Shown: positions 22,517 through 31,641 of the stretch, piece after piece
Position numbering within the stretch: position 1 is the first letter of the stretch
How the letters are laid out: every line of letters starts with the position of its first letter
Origin: a virus
Lineage: Duplodnaviria; Caudoviricetes
Length of the DNA stretch: 37,108 nt
IMG/VR virus record: IMGVR_UViG_3300027688_000009
Coordinates: 1-37,108 of that record
Direction: 5' to 3' (one strand)
The notes under the pieces: model-generated
The model's input: only the letters and a program-made list of their open reading frames with translations
Told to the model about the DNA's origin: nothing
Database searches by the model: none
Translations under genes and position numbers: made by a program

Positions 22517-23989
22517 TTATGCAACCCTTGACAGGTTTCTTTTCAACGGCTGTCCCCACTTGGTGCTGGCCTTAGACCCCATCATGCCGATTACAGCGTC
22601 ACTCGCAAACGTCAAACAAAACGCATCAGCCTTGTCAGGTGAGGCTAAACCCCGCTTCTTGATCTCATCCTTACTCTCGATCTGAATCTTCCCATTGCTC
22701 GTAAACATATAACGCACAGTCGCCAACTCAGCCACCAGCAACTCATCCTTTGGCAGCCGACAGTCCCGCTGCTCCAGCCACGCCTTGGCCTTGTACCAAA
22801 GCTCGGCCTTCAGATTCCTGTAAGTCCCGCCCATGGCCGGACTCTCGCTGACATTAATCCCGCGCGCCGGTAAACCCAACTCTTTGAGCCGATCCACCAC
22901 GCCAGCGCCAAGTCCAATACTGTCAACCAGTATCTCCTCCGGCCTGTCGCTTGGCGGCAACGCCTCAAACTCAGCCACCACCGCGCCGGTAAGCTGCATC
23001 AAGTCCAGATTCTTCCATGTCTTAATCGGCTCAGTCACCGCGTTACCCCGCCGCTTGCACAGTGCCGAGCGATCAGAGCCGAACCTTGCAACATCCAAGC
23101 CCCAGACCAGCGGCGCATAAGGCGATGCCACTACGTCCCGATTCATCGCCAAGTCCAGCAACTCCATCGGTATCACCGTGTCCTCATCACTCCTCGGAAA
23201 CTCACCCAGCACGCGAATCCGGTAAGCGTTACTCTCCTCGCCGTACCGCGACTTCATCTCCTCAATGTAAGCCTCACTCACCCGGGGCGACTCGGTGCAG
23301 GACACCTTCATCGTCACCCAATCCCCCGCCAACCGGTTATGCGTGTCAAAGAAGAATCCGCTACTCCTCACTGGGTTTCCCAGTAGCAACGTCACAGCGT
23401 TATGCCCCGACATCGAGCCAGACGCGGCCTCAAACACCTTCTCCGGAATACCAGATGCCTCATCCCCCACCAGCATCACATGGTCACTGTGAACCCCCTG
23501 CAACGCCTCGGGCTGCTCGGCCCTACTAGTCCTGGCTGAGATAAACGCCTCCTCGTTGGCATCCTTGACCTCAATCCGGTCCTGCTTCACCTCCAGCTGG
23601 TCATGCAGCATCGGCGGCAGCACCTTCACCCACCGCTTAACCTCCGCAAACAATGCGTCATAAAGCTGGCTGCTCGTTGGTGCCGTCACCACAATCTTCA
23701 CCGGAAACCTCAGAAACAAGTACCAGATCATCGCCCAACTCGCGCCAGTACTCTTCCCAACACCGTGTCCACTCCTCACGCTAATTCTTCTATTGCCCGC
23801 CGCAATGTGGTTCAAGAATTCCACTTGCCACGGGTCAGGCTCAGTGTTCAGCACCTCTCTGACGAATAGGACAGGATTATTCTTGTAGAGTTTGACGAAT
23901 TCGACAAATGGGTTATTCGTCACCAAATCATCAGAATTTTTTTTCGGGACGCGCTTCTTTGTCGCAGTGGGGGTAGGGGGTAGGGTCAT
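22517..23989 (-). CDS. terL: Terminase large subunit, 490 aa (start uncertain)
   Basis: Walker A SGHGVGKS, Walker B LVGDEA, LGNP coupling motif, nuclease GLDVARFGSD and SPD.ADA motifs. Confidence 0.95.
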   Translation of the reverse strand: MTLPPTPTATKKRVPKKNSDDLVTNNPFVEFVKLYKNNPVLFVREVLNTEPDPWQVEFLNHIAAGNRRISVRSGHGVGKSTGASWAMIWYLFLRFPVKIVVTAPTSSQLYDALFAEVKRWVKVLPPMLHDQLEVKQDRIEVKDANEEAFISARTSRAEQPEALQGVHSDHVMLVGDEASGIPEKVFEAASGSMSGHNAVTLLLGNPVRSSGFFFDTHNRLAGDWVTMKVSCTESPRVSEAYIEEMKSRYGEESNAYRIRVLGEFPRSDEDTVIPMELLDLAMNRDVVASPYAPLVWGLDVARFGSDRSALCKRRGNAVTEPIKTWKNLDLMQLTGAVVAEFEALPPSDRPEEILVDSIGLGAGVVDRLKELGLPARGINVSESPAMGGTYRNLKAELWYKAKAWLEQRDCRLPKDELLVAELATVRYMFTSNGKIQIESKDEIKKRGLASPDKADAFCLTFASDAVIGMMGSKASTKWGQPLKRNLSRVA

Positions 23990-24155
23990 GTGGTTATGTC
24001 GGTTGCGGATTTCGGTAGGTGTTCGGTTGCATCATCAGCTGCCCCCGCCAAAATCCAGCGATGGGGGGGTCGCCGCCGCCAGCGGCCAGCGGCACGCTCC
24101 GGCACCAGCATCGGCTACTTTACCGCTGAAAGTTATCCACAATCCACTATTCATG

Positions 24156-24168
24156 CAAGTCATTGATC
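24156..24168 (-). promoter_or_regulatory. IHF-like binding site
   Basis: Minus strand GATCAATGACTTG versus consensus WATCAANNNNTTR (one mismatch, at W); AT-rich 5' flank. Confidence 0.5.
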
Positions 24169-24201
24169 TATATGCTTTCTTACAGAATGCTGACATATTC
24201 C

Positions 24202-24229
24202 ATTTAACACGATGTCCATTATGTTAAGT
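24202..24229 (+). other. dif-like Xer recombination site
   Basis: ATTTAACACGA-TGTCCA-TTATGTTAAGT in an 11-6-11 layout; the right arm matches the E. coli XerD arm TTATGTTAAAT at 10/11. Confidence 0.65.
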
Positions 24230-24310
24230 CAATTGTGGATAACTGACCAGTATTTGCTCAACAAACAGGCAGAGTTGCGTTATCCACAGGGCAATGTGAT
24301 CAATCACGGC

Positions 24311-24742
24311 TCAATCCTGCTTCTCGCCTGTGGATAAGTCATCGACAACCTCGACATGGCGCAGCGCGGCCATGCGTAGGTCTTGGATGTTGATGTTGAT
24401 TGAGGCTGCTTTTTGTAAGCCGTAAGTCTTCTGATCCCATCGTTCGGCCAGCCACTGCCTCGTTCGGATGCGCTGGACATCGCGCTGCGGGTTGCTGTCG
24501 GCCATGCTGTCAGCAATGTCCAGAGTCTCCACCGCGAGTTTATCGGCGGCTTTCGCGCGCGCACGCGCAATTATAGAGGGATCGGTATCCTCGATCCATT
24601 GCTCAAGCGCCCTGCGCCCGATGCCCATTTCGTAGCAAATCTGAGTCTGCGACTTGCCTGCTTCAAACATGGACACGATCAGGTCATCGGGCAAATCCTC
24701 AAGCAGTGCCATGTCCTCTCTGAATTTCGGTCTTCCTGCCAC
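24311..24742 (-). CDS. terS: Terminase small subunit, 143 aa
   Basis: MAGRP start, HTH-like segment and AR...AD.LA.ETLDIAD...RI.TRQWLA..W pattern; AAGGAGG RBS; upstream of terL. Confidence 0.8.
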   Translation of the reverse strand: MAGRPKFREDMALLEDLPDDLIVSMFEAGKSQTQICYEMGIGRRALEQWIEDTDPSIIARARAKAADKLAVETLDIADSMADSNPQRDVQRIRTRQWLAERWDQKTYGLQKAASININIQDLRMAALRHVEVVDDLSTGEKQD

Positions 24743-24799: not shown

Positions 24800-25483
24800 T
24801 TAATTTGCTGCATTCTTCATTCTCCCTGCTAGTTTCGTGTCGAATTTCTTTTCCATGACTTCATTGTCATCGAATTTCAAGTCGTTTTCAAAGTCATCAA
24901 ATCCTGTTGCCCCTCCGAGCTTGAAGTCTGGCGCTGTTTTGAAACTGGTTACTGTGGCCGTTGGGAATAGTGCTTTGATCTTGATGACTTGCTGCATACG
25001 TTCATCGGCCATCAGCGCCTCGATCTCTTCCATAGCCCAGATGTTCTGATTGCTGATGTCTTGACGCTCCCGCTGTATTGCCACGGCCTCGTTGACAGTT
25101 CTGACAATCACCATGATCTGGCCGTTTTGCATTTGCCACTCAATCCTCGGGATGTTGTCGCTGGCTGGCGTTATGCCTTGATCTGTTGCCCACTGATCCA
25201 GCACGCCATACGCCCTGATCATTCCCGCCAGGCTTGAATCGAATTTCGCGTGATCCTTTGCCGTGACTGCTTGCTGCAATCTGGCGTTCTGAATCCAGAA
25301 TTTCTCTCTCAGCTCACTGTCTACTAAAGTAATCAGTCTATTTTCTCCCCATTTCCTGTCGCTGACTGCTTTGGCAGCCTCCAACTCCACCAGTTTTGAT
25401 TGAACGTAAATCGTCCAAGGGTCTGCTTGTGGACTTGGACTCGTTGCTAATGGATGCTGTCTGCTTTTTGCTTTTGTTGCCAT
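24800..25483 (-). CDS. Hypothetical protein between primase-helicase and terS, 227 aa
   Basis: Long ORF with AAGGAA RBS; no motif recognised. Confidence 0.8.
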   Translation of the reverse strand: MATKAKSRQHPLATSPSPQADPWTIYVQSKLVELEAAKAVSDRKWGENRLITLVDSELREKFWIQNARLQQAVTAKDHAKFDSSLAGMIRAYGVLDQWATDQGITPASDNIPRIEWQMQNGQIMVIVRTVNEAVAIQRERQDISNQNIWAMEEIEALMADERMQQVIKIKALFPTATVTSFKTAPDFKLGGATGFDDFENDLKFDDNEVMEKKFDTKLAGRMKNAAN

Positions 25484-25626: not shown

Positions 25627-27669
25627 TCAATACTCTTCTTTGTCTTCTGTTTTAAATTGCAGCCAAACGAATCCATCGCTGATACCGCCCTGTCCTGAGT
25701 CCAACAACTGCATCTTTGCGCGGTGCCAAGCTGTCTTAAACGTGTTCTTATCCTCCTCCACGCAGCCCATTTTTGACCACAATTCCTCTCTCCACTGCTC
25801 CAACCTGACCACAGTGCGTTGTGAACCTTCGATGTATTTCAGTACACCGCTGCTTTTAACGACAGTCTCTAGAGTTGTCATGACCATGCGCTGGTTTTTA
25901 CCCTTTCCGCTGTTGCCTCTGACTGCCTTTGCTGACTCATTGAAGTCGCTGGCCTGCACCGCCAAGCTGGTTACAGGATCGCCTATTTGCAGTGATCCAG
26001 CTGGCGGCTTGAGTTCCACGCTGACCATCTCAAAGCCGTAGCGGGTGCCGTCCTCACCGTCCTTTTGCTTGGCGGTTCTGATGATGCCTTTCATAGAGTC
26101 CTCAAAGCGGATCAACTCCAATTCGGTGTCCACGGCTCCTAAGAGCGCTGAGCTACCCCGCATCCCTTTGGCTGAGTCCTTGCCGCTGTGATGCAAAATC
26201 ATGAGCGCAGCGTCCTGCACGATCTTCTGAATATGCCCACAGGTGACCACAAACTGCATCATGTCTGAGGCTGAGTTCTCATCCCCGCCGCCAAAGGCTC
26301 TGGCTAAGGTGTCGATGATGATCAGCTTGAAGTCGATGCCGGTGTCTATGACCAAATGCTCCACGGCCAGCATCAGCGCGTTGAAGTCCTCCACGCTCGA
26401 TCTAAGGTTGAGCTGGTGCCTAATGACGTAGATCGGTGCGCCGTCCTCTGTCTGGTGATGCTGCTTACACGCCTTGATCCTTGCGCCGACTCCCCCGAAC
26501 CCCTCCCCCGCGATGTATAAAACGGAGCCTGGCTCTGTCACCTCATTGCCCATCCATGTCCTACCTGTCGCTATAGCCTCGGCAATGTCCAGCGCGATAA
26601 ACGACTTGAACGAGCCTGGCGGCCCGTAGAGCGCCGTGAACGCACCCACCGGCAGCATCTTGTCTATGAGCCACCTCACCGGCTCATCTTGTATTGAGTC
26701 CCAATGCTCGATGTTGATCTGCTTTGGCGGCTTGGCTTGTTCCTTTGGTGCTGGTGGCTCTGACTCAAATTCCTTTGCAATGTCCTGCGGTGATGGTGTT
26801 GCGTCCGGCACTGCATTTGTAATCGGATTCAACCTTTCGGGCATCGTTACTTGATCCGCACTAGTGATGATTGACGCTGCCTTGACCAGCGCCACCAGCT
26901 TGTCTTTGCTACCGCCTTCCGCGAGGAATTCATAGGCATCATCTCCTTGGCCTTGCAGGCCGAGATCAACTACCTTGACCGACTTAGCGATGGGCAGTAT
27001 GGCGGCTGCCGCCTTATGCGCGTACTGCCAGCCTGGCGTGTCGTTGTCCGGCAGGATGATGACCTGAGCGCCAGCAAAGTACTCGGTGATGGCCTCCGGC
27101 CAGCTGCCGGCACCAGCGTGCGCCGTGGTCGCAATCATGCCTATGCTTGTGATGGCATCCGCTGCCTTCTCGCCTTCGACCAAAAATATGTTCCTGCCTG
27201 CCGTCTTCGCGTCCAGCAGTGCGGGTAGGTTGTAGGGGACGATGCGCGCATCAGCGAGGCTTGAGTGCCTACGGCCATCAGCGTCAACCTTGTACAGCCT
27301 GTACGTTTTCCCTGTCTCGCCAATCTTGAACCGCTGCTTGACAAATACCGTTGTCCTGTCCTCATCTTGGTATTGCCACTCCTGCTCAAAGACGTTGCGC
27401 GGTATCGGTTTGATGTTGGCGAGTGGGTCTGGCCGTTCCATGAGTTCGGGAAGTAAGTGCAGTTCCCTGATGGTCTGGAACACGTCCTCCTGACTGCACC
27501 CACCGTGACAGTGGAACAGCGGCACGCCTTGCTCATTGATGTCTATGCTGAGACTTGGATTCTTGTCGCCGTTACCCTTACCGTGACCAGGTACAGGGCA
27601 GCTGGCTACCCACTGACCGTTTGCTTTTTTTGCGTTGCCCAGCTGCTTGGCTATTTGTTCTGCTTGCAT
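25627..27669 (-). CDS. Primase-helicase (Zn finger + TOPRIM + RepA/AAA_25-type helicase), 680 aa
   Basis: CPVPGH...CHGGC, VEGEK.AD, PDND..G, GPPGSFKS, IIIDTL and HHSGK...RGSS motifs; start MQAEQ at 27669 preferred. Confidence 0.9.
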   Translation of the reverse strand: MQAEQIAKQLGNAKKANGQWVASCPVPGHGKGNGDKNPSLSIDINEQGVPLFHCHGGCSQEDVFQTIRELHLLPELMERPDPLANIKPIPRNVFEQEWQYQDEDRTTVFVKQRFKIGETGKTYRLYKVDADGRRHSSLADARIVPYNLPALLDAKTAGRNIFLVEGEKAADAITSIGMIATTAHAGAGSWPEAITEYFAGAQVIILPDNDTPGWQYAHKAAAAILPIAKSVKVVDLGLQGQGDDAYEFLAEGGSKDKLVALVKAASIITSADQVTMPERLNPITNAVPDATPSPQDIAKEFESEPPAPKEQAKPPKQINIEHWDSIQDEPVRWLIDKMLPVGAFTALYGPPGSFKSFIALDIAEAIATGRTWMGNEVTEPGSVLYIAGEGFGGVGARIKACKQHHQTEDGAPIYVIRHQLNLRSSVEDFNALMLAVEHLVIDTGIDFKLIIIDTLARAFGGGDENSASDMMQFVVTCGHIQKIVQDAALMILHHSGKDSAKGMRGSSALLGAVDTELELIRFEDSMKGIIRTAKQKDGEDGTRYGFEMVSVELKPPAGSLQIGDPVTSLAVQASDFNESAKAVRGNSGKGKNQRMVMTTLETVVKSSGVLKYIEGSQRTVVRLEQWREELWSKMGCVEEDKNTFKTAWHRAKMQLLDSGQGGISDGFVWLQFKTEDKEEY

Positions 27670-28898
27670 ATTGCCTCTACTTGTTCTATGCGTTGCCCAA
27701 TCCATGCCATGACTGGCACTGCCATGCTGTTGCCCAATGCTTTGTAGCGTGGACCATCAGGTGTTGGCTTGCCCTTGCTAATGATGTCGGTGTAGTTATC
27801 GCTAAATCCCTGCAATCTCTCGCATTCAACAGGGGTGAGTCTGCGAACTGCCATTGCTTGCTGAATTACTACTGCTTCATTGCCTTGTGTAGGACGATGG
27901 GCATCTTGCGTAAGAGCGCCAACGCCATGATCCTCACGAATTTGACGACCCGGAGACATTAAGTTCATTGACCATGCCACCGCCATCGGATTCTTGGCTT
28001 GCAGGGTTTGCGTCATGTCCACATCTGTTTGCGGGTTTGACACCTGGCCGCTGAATGCGATGGGTTGCATAACCATGGGACTGTTGCCACCACCAGTGCC
28101 AGCAAAGGCTTGCAAAGTATTGGAAATGCCGTCATACAAACGCACACCATCTCTACGACTACTTTCAAACCCAATTGCTTGCGCTGGGACAAACATCGGA
28201 CAACCAGCATTGATGTGCTGATTCTCAAGACTTTGTTTTGTGCCAAAGGTTGTGTCTAATGTGCCGCTTATGTCGGCGGCCCAGCTACGGCTTGAAGCGC
28301 CTGCTCCAACGCTGGCGGCAACACCTTGCCCCTTTTCTCTGCTCGGCGCAGGATGCCCTGACAGGCTGTGGCGCTCAAAAAGAACCGCTGCGGCAAGTCG
28401 CCAATCTCCAAGGTATCCGACAACGAACACACGGCGGCGGCGCTGTGCCACTCCGAAATACTGAGCGTCAAGCACCCTGTATGCGAACCCATACCCGCAT
28501 TCTGCCAACCCTCCAAGGAAGCTGCCAAAGTCCCGTCCTCCATTGGAGGACAGAACGCCGGGGACGTTCTCCCAGACCAACCAGTTGGGGCGATATTGTT
28601 TAGCAATGGCAAGATAGGTAAGCATGAGGTTGCCACGCGGGTCATCCAATCCCTTTCTGAGTCCTGCGACTGAGAATGATTGACAGGGAGTTCCTCCGAC
28701 AAGAAGATCGACATTTGATTCAATTGACCACTCCTTAAATTTCGTCATGTCGCCAAGGTTTGGCGTTTGTGGGTAATGGTGCGCCAGCACCTGAGATGGG
28801 AACTTCTCAATCTCCGAATACGCTACTGCCTCCCATCCAAGGGGATGCCATGCTACTGTTGCCGCCTCAATACCACTGCAAAGTGAGAGATATTTCAT
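27651..28898 (-). CDS. DNA (cytosine-5)-methyltransferase, 415 aa
   Basis: LSLCSGI, GGTPCQSFS, ENVPG, QRRRR, RRLTP.ECERLQGF and GNSM motifs. Confidence 0.95.
   Translation of the reverse strand: MKYLSLCSGIEAATVAWHPLGWEAVAYSEIEKFPSQVLAHHYPQTPNLGDMTKFKEWSIESNVDLLVGGTPCQSFSVAGLRKGLDDPRGNLMLTYLAIAKQYRPNWLVWENVPGVLSSNGGRDFGSFLGGLAECGYGFAYRVLDAQYFGVAQRRRRVFVVGYLGDWRLAAAVLFERHSLSGHPAPSREKGQGVAASVGAGASSRSWAADISGTLDTTFGTKQSLENQHINAGCPMFVPAQAIGFESSRRDGVRLYDGISNTLQAFAGTGGGNSPMVMQPIAFSGQVSNPQTDVDMTQTLQAKNPMAVAWSMNLMSPGRQIREDHGVGALTQDAHRPTQGNEAVVIQQAMAVRRLTPVECERLQGFSDNYTDIISKGKPTPDGPRYKALGNSMAVPVMAWIGQRIEQVEAICKQNK
28268..28723 (-). CDS. Nested alternative-frame protein within the C5 methyltransferase gene, 151 aa
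   Basis: TTG start with AAGGAG (28731-28736) 7 nt upstream; ends LSDTLE...FFLS..AC.GILRRAEKRGK.LP..L..AL. Confidence 0.65.
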   Translation of the reverse strand: MNQMSIFLSEELPVNHSQSQDSERDWMTRVATSCLPILPLLNNIAPTGWSGRTSPAFCPPMEDGTLAASLEGWQNAGMGSHTGCLTLSISEWHSAAAVCSLSDTLEIGDLPQRFFLSATACQGILRRAEKRGKVLPPALEQALQAVAGPPT

Positions 28899-28961: not shown

Positions 28962-29591
28962 TTAGAACATCTCGTCATCAGCCACTGCTGCGGCCATCGC
29001 AGTCTTCACCGGCGCTGGTGGTGCAACTGGCGCAGCAGCCAGTGCAGCCACAACAGCATCGGCTTTCAATGCTTTACTCGCCACCTCTACAGGCATATGT
29101 ATGATGGTCTCAGCGTCAGCAGACATACCCAATGGCCGGTCAATCCAACTCACGATATTGAAGTTCGGTATGCGAGTTGTGCCTTTGCCGATCTTCTCCA
29201 GCTTGCTACCGGTGTACTCCAGCACTGGCAACTTACCAGCATTGGCGGCCTGCTGCGCCGCGCAGTCCATGTACAGCTTCTCCAGCCCCATGTTCGGGCC
29301 TACGCCAGAGGATGACCACTCGCACAGCCCGAGCAGTTTGTTATAAAAGTGAATAATAAATCCCCTTTTATGGTCCGGCGTGGGTTGCGGTCCTTTCTTG
29401 CCGAGGCTTACATCGGCCTGCCAATCGCGTACACCAACACCGAGTTGCAGCCAGCCGGTTTGGACCGTGTTAATGTCGAAGACAACCTTGCCGAGTTGGA
29501 TTTCCTCGCCTTGGTTGTTTGTCCAAGCGTTGGCTTGGGGAGAGAAGCGGATGTAGTTTCCATTACCGCCACCAGAGGATAAATTTAGCAT
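28962..29591 (-). CDS. Putative ssDNA-binding protein, 209 aa
   Basis: Aromatic beta-rich core, Ala/Pro linker and acidic-hydrophobic tail DDEMF; lies between nuclease and primase; start MLNL at 29591. Confidence 0.55.
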   Translation of the reverse strand: MLNLSSGGGNGNYIRFSPQANAWTNNQGEEIQLGKVVFDINTVQTGWLQLGVGVRDWQADVSLGKKGPQPTPDHKRGFIIHFYNKLLGLCEWSSSGVGPNMGLEKLYMDCAAQQAANAGKLPVLEYTGSKLEKIGKGTTRIPNFNIVSWIDRPLGMSADAETIIHMPVEVASKALKADAVVAALAAAPVAPPAPVKTAMAAAVADDEMF

Positions 29592-30739: not shown

Positions 30740-30945
30740 GAGTCTCTTTCAATGTGATGTTCGTTAAGGATGAGTTGGTACGCCAGCTGGCGCACCTCAG
30801 TGCTCGCGGCGTGTCCCAAGTCCTCGGGATCGAGCAGGCGTTTCAGGAATACGACTTTGTCCTGATTGGCTTTGCGCTGCTTCTCCAGCATCTCGGCCAA
30901 CCAGACTATGTGCTGGCGCATGATCTGTCGTTCCTTGTCAGCCAT
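30724..30945 (-). CDS. Hypothetical protein, 73 aa
   Basis: Overlap-coupled ORF; FLKRLLDPEDLGHA motif. Confidence 0.75.
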   Translation of the reverse strand: MADKERQIMRQHIVWLAEMLEKQRKANQDKVVFLKRLLDPEDLGHAASTEVRQLAYQLILNEHHIERDSWQSN

Positions 30946-31408
30946 TGCGGATACCCCACGCTGCTATCAGCGTTGCCTCTGCTCTGCCGTCATCTTTGAC
31001 GCGCTTGAAGTATTCCGACATGGCGGGGAATAACTCGATGGCGCGCTGTCTGGATGCATCCTTACCGGCAGCCTTACCCATGGCCTTCGTCCAAGTGGCT
31101 GGTGCCACATAGGTGACCGGAATGTTTAGCGCGGCCAGCACGCCTTCGACTACGCCAAGACTTCGGCCGAAGCCAAACATGGCCGTTACGCCTTGACCCG
31201 GGCGTGCTGCCGGACGTTCTACTATGGCCTGATCCGGTCTGAGGTTGCCAATGATCTCGGCCAGCAGCTGCGGTGAGACTTGCCGCTTGGTCTTCTTGTT
31301 AATGTCTACGGTCAGCGTTGGCATATCGTGTACCGAGAGCAACTGTCCGTCTACCAGCACCGCTATTGCGCCGTTCAAGCCGCAGTCAATACCCAAGGTG
31401 CGCTTCAT
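30938..31408 (-). CDS. RuvC-like Holliday junction resolvase, 156 aa
   Basis: LGID.G..GA, IVE, F.FG...G, P..W.K and DGRAEA motifs; ATG at 31408 overlaps the HTH gene stop. Confidence 0.85.
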   Translation of the reverse strand: MKRTLGIDCGLNGAIAVLVDGQLLSVHDMPTLTVDINKKTKRQVSPQLLAEIIGNLRPDQAIVERPAARPGQGVTAMFGFGRSLGVVEGVLAALNIPVTYVAPATWTKAMGKAAGKDASRQRAIELFPAMSEYFKRVKDDGRAEATLIAAWGIRNG

Positions 31409-31641
31409 TTGACGGCCTCTTCCATGGCCTTGTTTAGCACCTGTAGCCGCGCTGAGATGAGCGCGTCTGCGGCCTGCTCCAAGCGAATGACGGTGGAGTA
31501 AAGTGGTTCGGTCTGCCCATTGATCCAGCGCGAGAGCTGCGCTTGGTCGATCTCTGCGACACGGCACAGATCGGACATCCGGTATCCGGCTGATTCAATC
31601 TTAAACTTGATGTCCTGAATGGCTTGCTGTGAGACTTTCAT
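31405..31641 (-). CDS. XRE/Cro-like HTH regulator, 78 aa
   Basis: MSDLCRVAEIDQAQLSRWING.TEP HTH; first gene of the leftward operon; no peptidase domain. Confidence 0.8.
   Translation of the reverse strand: MKVSQQAIQDIKFKIESAGYRMSDLCRVAEIDQAQLSRWINGQTEPLYSTVIRLEQAADALISARLQVLNKAMEEAVK

Follow-up and report, generated by a model that had tools for sequence, protein, structure and literature searches.

A conserved dif-like site with IHF and DnaA motifs before terL of a freshwater podophage, and its possible role in the joining of genome ends by host XerCD

In the gap between the genes for the small and the large terminase subunit (terS and terL), the virus record IMGVR_UViG_3300027688_000009 carries a putative dif-type XerCD recombination site together with motifs for IHF and DnaA. 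This IMG/VR record of 37,108 bases, whose completeness is rated 100%, was analysed as a whole and is called the window here. That the DnaA, IHF and XerCD motifs form one conserved cis element is supported by their conservation among relatives, by arms that match those of the likely host and by fixed spacing. On balance, we consider it probable that the injected DNA has a dif copy at either end, that host XerCD recombines the two so that circles or concatemers form, and that IHF and DnaA shape the junction. A first-pass annotation of the window had described a single cis element built from host signals; this description is supported for the DnaA, IHF and XerCD motifs, but is doubtful for the signals assigned to FtsK.

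The element between terS and terL

All motifs listed in the first-pass annotation were found, in the order claimed. At the start of terL (22517..23989, minus strand), a G-run at 23969..23985 (plus strand; a C-run on the coding strand) contains two GGGTAGGG octamers of the type of the FtsK-orienting polar sequences (KOPS); they start at 23971 and 23978, overlap by one base and point towards dif. Then come DnaA box A (24133..24141, plus strand), an IHF-type site (24156..24168, minus strand) with one mismatch to WATCAANNNNTTR, at W, and, with its XerC-side arm 33 bp away from the IHF site, the dif-like site (24202..24229, plus strand), which was recognized by motif and by matrix match. Three further DnaA boxes follow: B (24234..24242, minus strand) is 4 bp off the XerD arm, C is found at 24280..24288 (plus strand), and D (24329..24337, minus strand) lies in the last codons, L-S-T, of terS (24311..24742, minus strand). 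All four boxes match the motif perfectly and are the only perfect DnaA boxes of the genome, for which 0.25 would be expected; the chance of finding four inside 205 bp is about 1e-10. The dif-like 28-mer has the 11-6-11 layout of dif, with an 11-bp XerC-type arm, the spacer TGTCCA and an 11-bp XerD-type arm, and it is the sole site in the genome with a full XerD core. The IHF motif is weak on its own (35 one-mismatch sites in the whole genome), and KOPS-type octamers, of which there are four in 37 kb, are not enriched genome-wide. Such clustering of high-affinity DnaA boxes, together with a site for IHF, is also what is expected of an oriC-like origin, of datA or of DARS.

Co-conservation in related terS-terL intervals, which the first-pass annotation had named as a check, was indeed observed. 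Of 596 relatives confirmed in a TerL scan, the best 80, with identities of 81-100%, were kept, 13 of them were skipped since they had less than 380 nt upstream, and the remainder plus the window gave 57 distinct segments that were dereplicated at 95% to 37 sequences. The TerL relative L080, which has none of the motifs, was excluded before that count. The XerD core is present in 35 of the 37 sequences, the IHF core in 34, and at least two DnaA boxes (perfect or of the TTGTCCACA variant) in 36. Column identity is 0.92 in the XerD arm and 0.86 in the spacer, compared to 0.38-0.66 in the linkers; the dif arms are conserved among the relatives and lie outside coding sequence. Box D reaches a mean column identity of 0.99, and the third positions of all three codons are fixed although they are free to vary. 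The tandem KOPS pair is not part of the conserved element: two copies are kept in only 5 of the 37 relatives and one copy in 27, where shuffles expect 3.3 with kinship uncorrected.

The geometry of the element was tabulated for 35 of the 37 sequences, L079 (without XerD core) and L081 being outside the table. In 32 of the 35, the start of the IHF core precedes dif by 46-47 nt. The distance of box D to the start of dif is 116-118 nt in 31 sequences, 127 nt in three and 107 nt in one. Box A, counted with up to one mismatch and in either orientation, is found in 33 sequences and is absent in two; it is on the plus strand at -69 in 20 of them and reversed in 13, at -65, -77, -88/-89 or -112. The boxes thus do not have the fixed orientation around the IHF site that is characteristic of an oriC-like origin, since box A flips among relatives. 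The shifts of the boxes are steps of about 11 bp. Such helical-turn steps suggest a phased protein-DNA complex, with few independent indels behind them. In a sister clade (TerL about 80% identical) dif is flipped relative to terS-terL but lies in the same gap, and dif also adjoins a TerL that is only 30% identical.

Towards terL the gap contains an inverted repeat of a C-run and a G-run (24041-24069, in a feature at 24029..24069, minus strand) that is present in 36 of the 37 sequences and whose arms are 0.98 conserved. In the three phages folded, the stability of this hairpin was not above that of shuffles, and it is therefore handled as a sequence signal. An A-tract (23935..23946, minus strand; mean column identity 0.92 in the 37 sequences) lies before or in the terL start, the real start being possibly up to about 70 nt further inside the open reading frame (ORF) at 22517..23989. 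Between the C-run/G-run element and terL, a word at 24010-24022 has several columns near 1.0; it may be a terminase or processing signal. The GC content is 33% over 24161-24240. Cumulative GC skew has no turn at 24 kb, no iterons other than the DnaA boxes were found in the element, scans for sigma-70 promoters and terminators gave none, and an Rfam search returned a single match (E=0.34) that was judged to be due to chance.

dif-like sites before terL and the likely host

The association of dif with terL extends beyond the close relatives. Viral contigs were scanned for a generic dif pattern with the terminase ignored; 5 of 64 parts were scanned and 80 loci with flanks were examined. The pattern is estimated to occur in about 1800 stretches, and the reversed pattern was found in 107 in the whole collection. 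In 29 of the 80 loci TerL was the longest ORF on one side. The dif-like site was 134-856 nt upstream of the TerL start in 28 of 80 loci versus 1 of 80 in the reversed-pattern control (p=8e-9), which differed slightly in that the first 300 amino acids of the two longest ORFs were searched at E 1e-12 and in which TerL was nearby in 3 of 80. The 29 TerL-linked sites are oriented one way in 19 cases and the other way in 10, and the loci cover at least four profile groups of TerL (phrog_5902, 2472, 38, 979, 2).

Spacers distinguish these sites from the 50 other viral sites, many of which are beside inovirus genes. The common chromosomal spacer, TGTATA, occurs in 0 of 29 TerL-linked sites versus 14 of 50 others (p=0.0014), and a spacer start TGT in 0 of 29 generic TerL-linked sites versus 16 of 50. 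At 11 of 28 TerL-linked sites dif has an IHF core no more than 60 nt away, and the same is seen at 11 of the 50 other viral sites, at 1 of 80 control sites and at 0 of 20 sites from hosts. C- or G-runs at up to 200 nt from dif were observed in 23 of 28 TerL-linked loci and in 0 of 80 controls. DnaA boxes within 200 nt were seen at 4 of 28 TerL-linked sites. The common core is dif before terL, IHF is a frequent partner and DnaA boxes are a feature of the studied clade.

Several loci deviate from this arrangement or add to it. Related freshwater phages (L242, around 2001, L218, L225 and L261) have arrays of three to five DnaA boxes on the same strand, spaced by about 11 bp, which flank dif on one side or on both and resemble those of oriC. 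At L229, L236, L262 and L222 dif-like sites adjoin replication-initiator genes (phrog_270); these may share the end-repeat layout, with a more distant terL. In the viral contigs L147, L182 and L271, several DnaA boxes accompany a dif of the enterobacterial type; two of these loci are on contigs of 155-262 kb. A perfect DnaA box is present upstream of terL both in the Pelagibacter phage HTVC106P (L633:1491-1535) and in HTVC010P (L630:667-675); in HTVC106P an imperfect palindrome around a centre of 6 bp comes after the box, a possible dif of the SAR11 type. T4-like cyanophages (H51-H55), 17 Rheinheimera phage records and Listeria P70-like phages gave weak non-coding dif-like matches, with E values of 1-4 where shown, which may be due to chance.

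The arms of the site point to the host. According to Table 1 of PMC2731167, dif of Rhodoferax ferrireducens shares with the phage site its right arm and the unusual inner left arm. On a matrix of 14 dif sites of the Limnohabitans genus the phage site scores 26.5 bits, the next site of the genome 4.8 and the hosts 33-39; identity to these 14 sites is 10-11 of 11 positions in the XerD arm and 6-8 of 11 in the XerC arm. The genus, which was reached through the label of a Limnohabitans bin, has a loose dif pattern in 92 of 101 genomes, nearly always once and mostly with the spacer TGTATA, and its inner left arm is ACGA or ACAA at one site per genome. Judged from the arms and from this label, the phage likely infects a Limnohabitans-like bacterium of the family Comamonadaceae. 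Polynucleobacter was dropped as a host, its dif being different (49 of 61 genomes matched), and so was a reading of the odd left arm as cer/psi-like, as this arm is the XerC arm of Comamonadaceae.

The spacer does not follow the host. The phage has TGTCCA, which differs from TGTATA of the host; sister phages whose arms are identical to those of the host have spacers that start with CGG, and among 85 distinct matches of a Limnohabitans-type scan TGTATA occurred once. No cultured phage matched the window's own dif site. The first-pass annotation had offered three uses of the element, one of which was host-run maintenance as a circle or as a prophage integrated at dif. A circle is conceivable; the prophage finds no footing in the data: the arms follow the host while the spacers drift away from it, and searches of 127 genomes of the Limnohabitans genus and 401 of the family (a sample with one genome per species) gave no close relative in integrated form. 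Close TerL relatives in GTDB are only on short contigs of metagenome-assembled genomes (MAGs) without host flanks. A second dif in the Limnohabitans-genus genome G055 (C2, about 107000-116100; L397, L400) was ruled out as a related prophage. It belongs to an island that encodes a P4-like integrase as well as a DUF927 protein and has no protein homology to the phage; next to the chromosomal genes fbp/pepN, the island ends in a dif-like site with the phage's spacer. Possibly, this is a satellite or an island resembling the integrative mobile elements exploiting Xer (IMEX).

The proposal of KOPS and FtsK was the weakest part of the first-pass annotation: the octamers lie in the C-run that most such phages have, usually without KOPS. 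In the likely host, GGGNAGGG is polarised towards dif, with 46:7 and 4:40 on the two sides over 400 kb of G014, and of the 86 KOPS pointing towards dif in G014, 71 are GGGCAGGG and three are GGGTAGGG. With host KOPS almost all GGGCAGGG, KOPS pointing to dif in 3 of the 28 distant TerL-linked loci and a C-run common to such loci, an involvement of FtsK appears doubtful.

Genome ends, the proposed reaction and its alternatives

Among cultured phages whose ends are annotated, Sinorhizobium phage phiM5 (GenBank MF074189) comes closest, with a TerL that is 55% and a portal that is 44.5% identical. Its direct terminal repeats of 357 bp start inside terS, cover the 3' part of terS and end 12 nt past a C-run/G-run element that closes with nine letters shared with the window, GGGGGCAGC; then follow the A-tract and terL. 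In TerL and in the layout of this region the window resembles phiM5, as expected of a phage with short direct terminal repeats. By homology, the repeat of the window probably runs from about 24029 into terS. It would then take in the IHF site, dif and the four DnaA boxes, whereas the KOPS-like octamers would fall outside. In phage C72C1 (TerL 46%), this gap likewise contains a C-run/G-run element along with IHF-like and dif-like ones. In cultured rV5-like phages dif is found inside annotated terminal repeats (Gotham, 459 bp; Hena1, 519 bp), in Gotham with host-type arms and a non-host spacer; RpT1 has two dif copies, one at nt 82-109, and dif is near the start in two T7-like Ralstonia phage records. 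The contig ends of relatives lie between 200 nt inside terL and 500 nt upstream in 17 of 43 cases, versus 2 of 37 downstream. This clustering fits real genome ends, and causes in the assembly are possible as well. The termini of the window record themselves share an overlap of 130 bases (99% identity), so that the record is an assembled circle with an arbitrary opening point. Freshwater metagenome runs contain DNA of the phage; for identical unitigs, a maximum of about 1.5 times the flanks is reached at 24199-24364 (X1) and at 24117-24298 (X2), which may be due to a repeat or to shared sequence and is not counted as evidence.

The gene content is that of a podophage whose capsid, portal and adaptor are SU10-like. 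TerL is assigned by phrog_2 and phrog_5902, and the small subunit is Sf6-like (phrog_1482, PF20901). A primase-helicase (25627..27705, minus strand; profile matches), a RuvC-like Holliday junction resolvase (30938..31567, minus strand; phrog_1770, phrog_159), a DUF2800 exonuclease, a methylase and an HTH_3 regulator are also encoded, and no DNA polymerase was found among the 50 ORFs scanned. As to the polymerase, this agrees with the first-pass annotation, to which the primase-helicase, the exonuclease and the resolvase have to be added. The statement made there that no integrase, recombinase or Par genes were recognized agrees with six-frame searches of the 37,108-base genome, in which neither a tyrosine integrase or serine resolvase nor ParA or DUF3653 turned up; the latter we take to be the family of XafT-type activators of IMEX. 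A 227-residue ORF at 24800-25483 (minus strand), between the primase-helicase and terS, has no match in PHROG, Pfam or the Atlas and is a candidate partner of the element; searches gave no assignment for a 215-residue ORF at 28962.

If the terS-terL gap is a short direct terminal repeat, each injected linear genome would carry two dif copies. A lone dif on a circle could sit anywhere, while a dif just inside the end repeat is present twice per injected genome, in direct orientation and with identical spacers. Recombination by XerCD would give a circle within one molecule and a head-to-tail concatemer between molecules; that tyrosine recombination of direct copies has these outcomes is established chemistry, as set out in PMC5357621. 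By its private spacer the phage site would pair with its own copy, and recombination with the chromosome would presumably not be completed. IHF may bend the ends and DnaA may coat them, in phase with the dif core, which would aid synapsis. FtsK would be dispensable if, as the simpler guess has it, XerC makes the first exchange and replication or the RuvC-like resolvase of the phage completes the reaction. Because the phage has a primase-helicase and no polymerase, it is tempting to speculate that the sealed junction serves to load the host replisome via DnaA; in view of the absence of a skew turn and of the variable orientation of box A, it is uncertain that DnaA would open the junction for the host polymerase.

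Several observations weigh against the joining of ends by XerCD. For a Limnohabitans-like host it is not established that Xer recombines linear DNA when FtsK is absent. The repeat is deduced from a single relative, phiM5, which itself has no dif there, the ends of the studied phage are predicted from assembled contigs, and the clustering of contig ends is also explicable by shared sequence of co-occurring phages and by the choice of loci with a whole terL. There are near-duplicates among the 28 loci, with 20 distinct spacers in 29, and one TerL-linked dif-like site (L220:2001-2022), the sole downstream case, lies between terL and portal. No dif was found within 1.5 kb upstream of terL in three Manatee Spring phages (TerL 54-67%), and with the pattern used none was found near terL in five MAG loci (44-72%) or in Rhodoferax phage P26218, Venkman, OspP_OH and HTVC010P; the site is therefore optional for this TerL family. 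The low number of TerL-linked sites with DnaA boxes points to a clade-specific role of the boxes. Finally, the window spacer keeps the first three bases of the host spacer, which integration of the VGJ type would need.

The fixed place by terL and the packaging-type C-run and A-tract could also indicate a late role at packaging, in which an IHF/DnaA/XerCD complex helps the terminase to start or a Xer Holliday junction between concatemer junctions helps to duplicate the repeat. IHF is a known helper at lambda cos, the phiM5 repeat has an IHF-like word despite having no dif, and the phage encodes its own junction resolvase. For a purely structural role, however, neither an exact 11-6-11 site nor arms that track the host, in both orientations, would be required, and the rV5-like repeats hold dif without an annotated gene nearby; we regard a packaging role as unlikely. 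Of the uses offered in the first-pass annotation, coupling to the packaging site nevertheless comes closest, with the difference that ends would be joined via the terminal repeat and no concatemer would be resolved. A small chance of much the same order, if anything a little lower, is given to dimer resolution of a circular form, as by cer, psi or pdif, combined with a host-run DnaA/IHF origin for a plasmid-like or carrier state. A non-host spacer and IHF beside the core would suit a plasmid-type resolution site, and the boxes, the IHF site and the stretch of 33% GC a small origin; the lack of an integrase and the 11-bp tandem box arrays in L242, L225 and L261 go along with this. On a circle the position would be free, yet 28 of 29 TerL-linked sites are just upstream of terL, and ParA, iterons beyond the boxes, a turn of the cumulative GC skew at 24 kb and a constant orientation of box A are all missing.

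Integration at host dif, with the site as attP of an IMEX among tailed phages, is improbable. The arms match Limnohabitans-type dif, an integrase of its own is lacking, and the three spacer bases on the XerC side that the window shares with the host would be enough for VGJ-type integration, as described in PMC5357621; the HTH_3 regulator with a divergent early unit and the G055 island, which ends in a site with the same spacer, can be added. Against this stand the spacers of the sister phages and of the TerL-linked sites, none of which starts with TGT, the lack of an integrated copy in the genus and family genomes and of host flanks in the GTDB relatives, and the lack of the XafT-type activator. 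We see just as slim a chance for a decoy that, at high copy number, titrates DnaA, IHF and XerCD and stalls replication and division of the host, the remaining use offered in the first-pass annotation. Each genome has four perfect boxes, and box clusters are described for the T5 terminal repeat as well (bioRxiv 10.1101/866236). A sink requires neither a fixed place before terL, which this explanation does not account for, nor fixed IHF-dif spacing or helical phasing, and the boxes are found at only 4 of 28 TerL-linked sites. Titration may be a side effect of the element.

In a more general form, end-joining by host XerCD would be widespread, with about 600 IMG/VR stretches (extrapolated from 28 of 80): unrelated terminase families would have converged on a host-tuned dif with a private spacer in the end repeat, phased IHF and DnaA sites in the freshwater clade would make the sealed ends a host-run origin, and the arms would be a host barcode that points to Limnohabitans. 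This extension is tentative, and we would rather doubt it than rely on it.

Relation to known systems

To our knowledge, the protection and joining of ends after injection is unsettled in phages with short terminal repeats beyond a few models. In phage P1, a tyrosine-recombinase site in the terminal redundancy, loxP, is used by Cre to seal the incoming linear genome without RecA. The predicted position of dif in the window is similar. P1 has its own recombinase and a headful redundancy, whereas the phage studied here has no recombinase, a mimic of host dif and, as predicted, a short exact repeat. phiM5 shares the related TerL and portal and the end of its repeat past the same C-run/G-run element, but its repeat has neither dif nor a DnaA box. 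The rV5-like and T7-like phages Gotham, Hena1 and RpT1 share host-type arms, a non-host spacer and a location of the site in or at the end repeat; their dif is outside terS-terL, and the repeat of Gotham has no DnaA box or IHF core.

The known Xer-dependent systems are related in part. IMEX such as the phages CTX, VGJ and TLC and the gonococcal island are also mobile elements without integrase that have a dif-like XerCD site (PMC5357621 and PMC2731167), and on the XerD side the window spacer is unlike that of host dif, which also holds for attP of VGJ. As far as these sources describe them, IMEX are filamentous phages or islands that integrate, whereas the window is from a tailed podophage of which no integrated copy was found and whose sisters have spacers that differ on the XerC side, too. 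With the plasmid sites cer and psi the element shares a non-chromosomal spacer, the predicted recombination of self with self and accessory sites beside the core (PMC5357621). There, the accessory factors are PepA with ArgR or ArcA, whose sites take up about 180 bp next to the core, and the substrate is a supercoiled dimer; here, the accessory sites are of the IHF and DnaA type, with an IHF core in that place, and recombination is predicted between both ends of a linear genome. The iss region in T5's left terminal repeat has conserved, ordered DnaA boxes whose function is unproven, in a repeat of about 10 kb; in the window the repeat is predicted. The available text of the T5 report (bioRxiv 10.1101/866236) proposes a stop of injection and does not mention Xer.

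A literature search, with subscription papers and supplements outside its scope, gave no description of dif at terS-terL or in terminal repeats. What is new is the rule that dif stands between terS and terL in different terminase families, compared against a control, together with arms that track the host around private spacers, and the phasing. If the ends are indeed joined by XerCD, mobile DNA would be using this recombinase in a third way, besides the resolution of plasmid dimers and the integration of IMEX, and xerC, xerD, ihf and dnaA would be host factors for lytic phages. The position of the dif-like site would then mark the genome ends in assembled phage contigs, and the dif arms would help to assign hosts to abundant uncultured podophages of freshwater and marine habitats.

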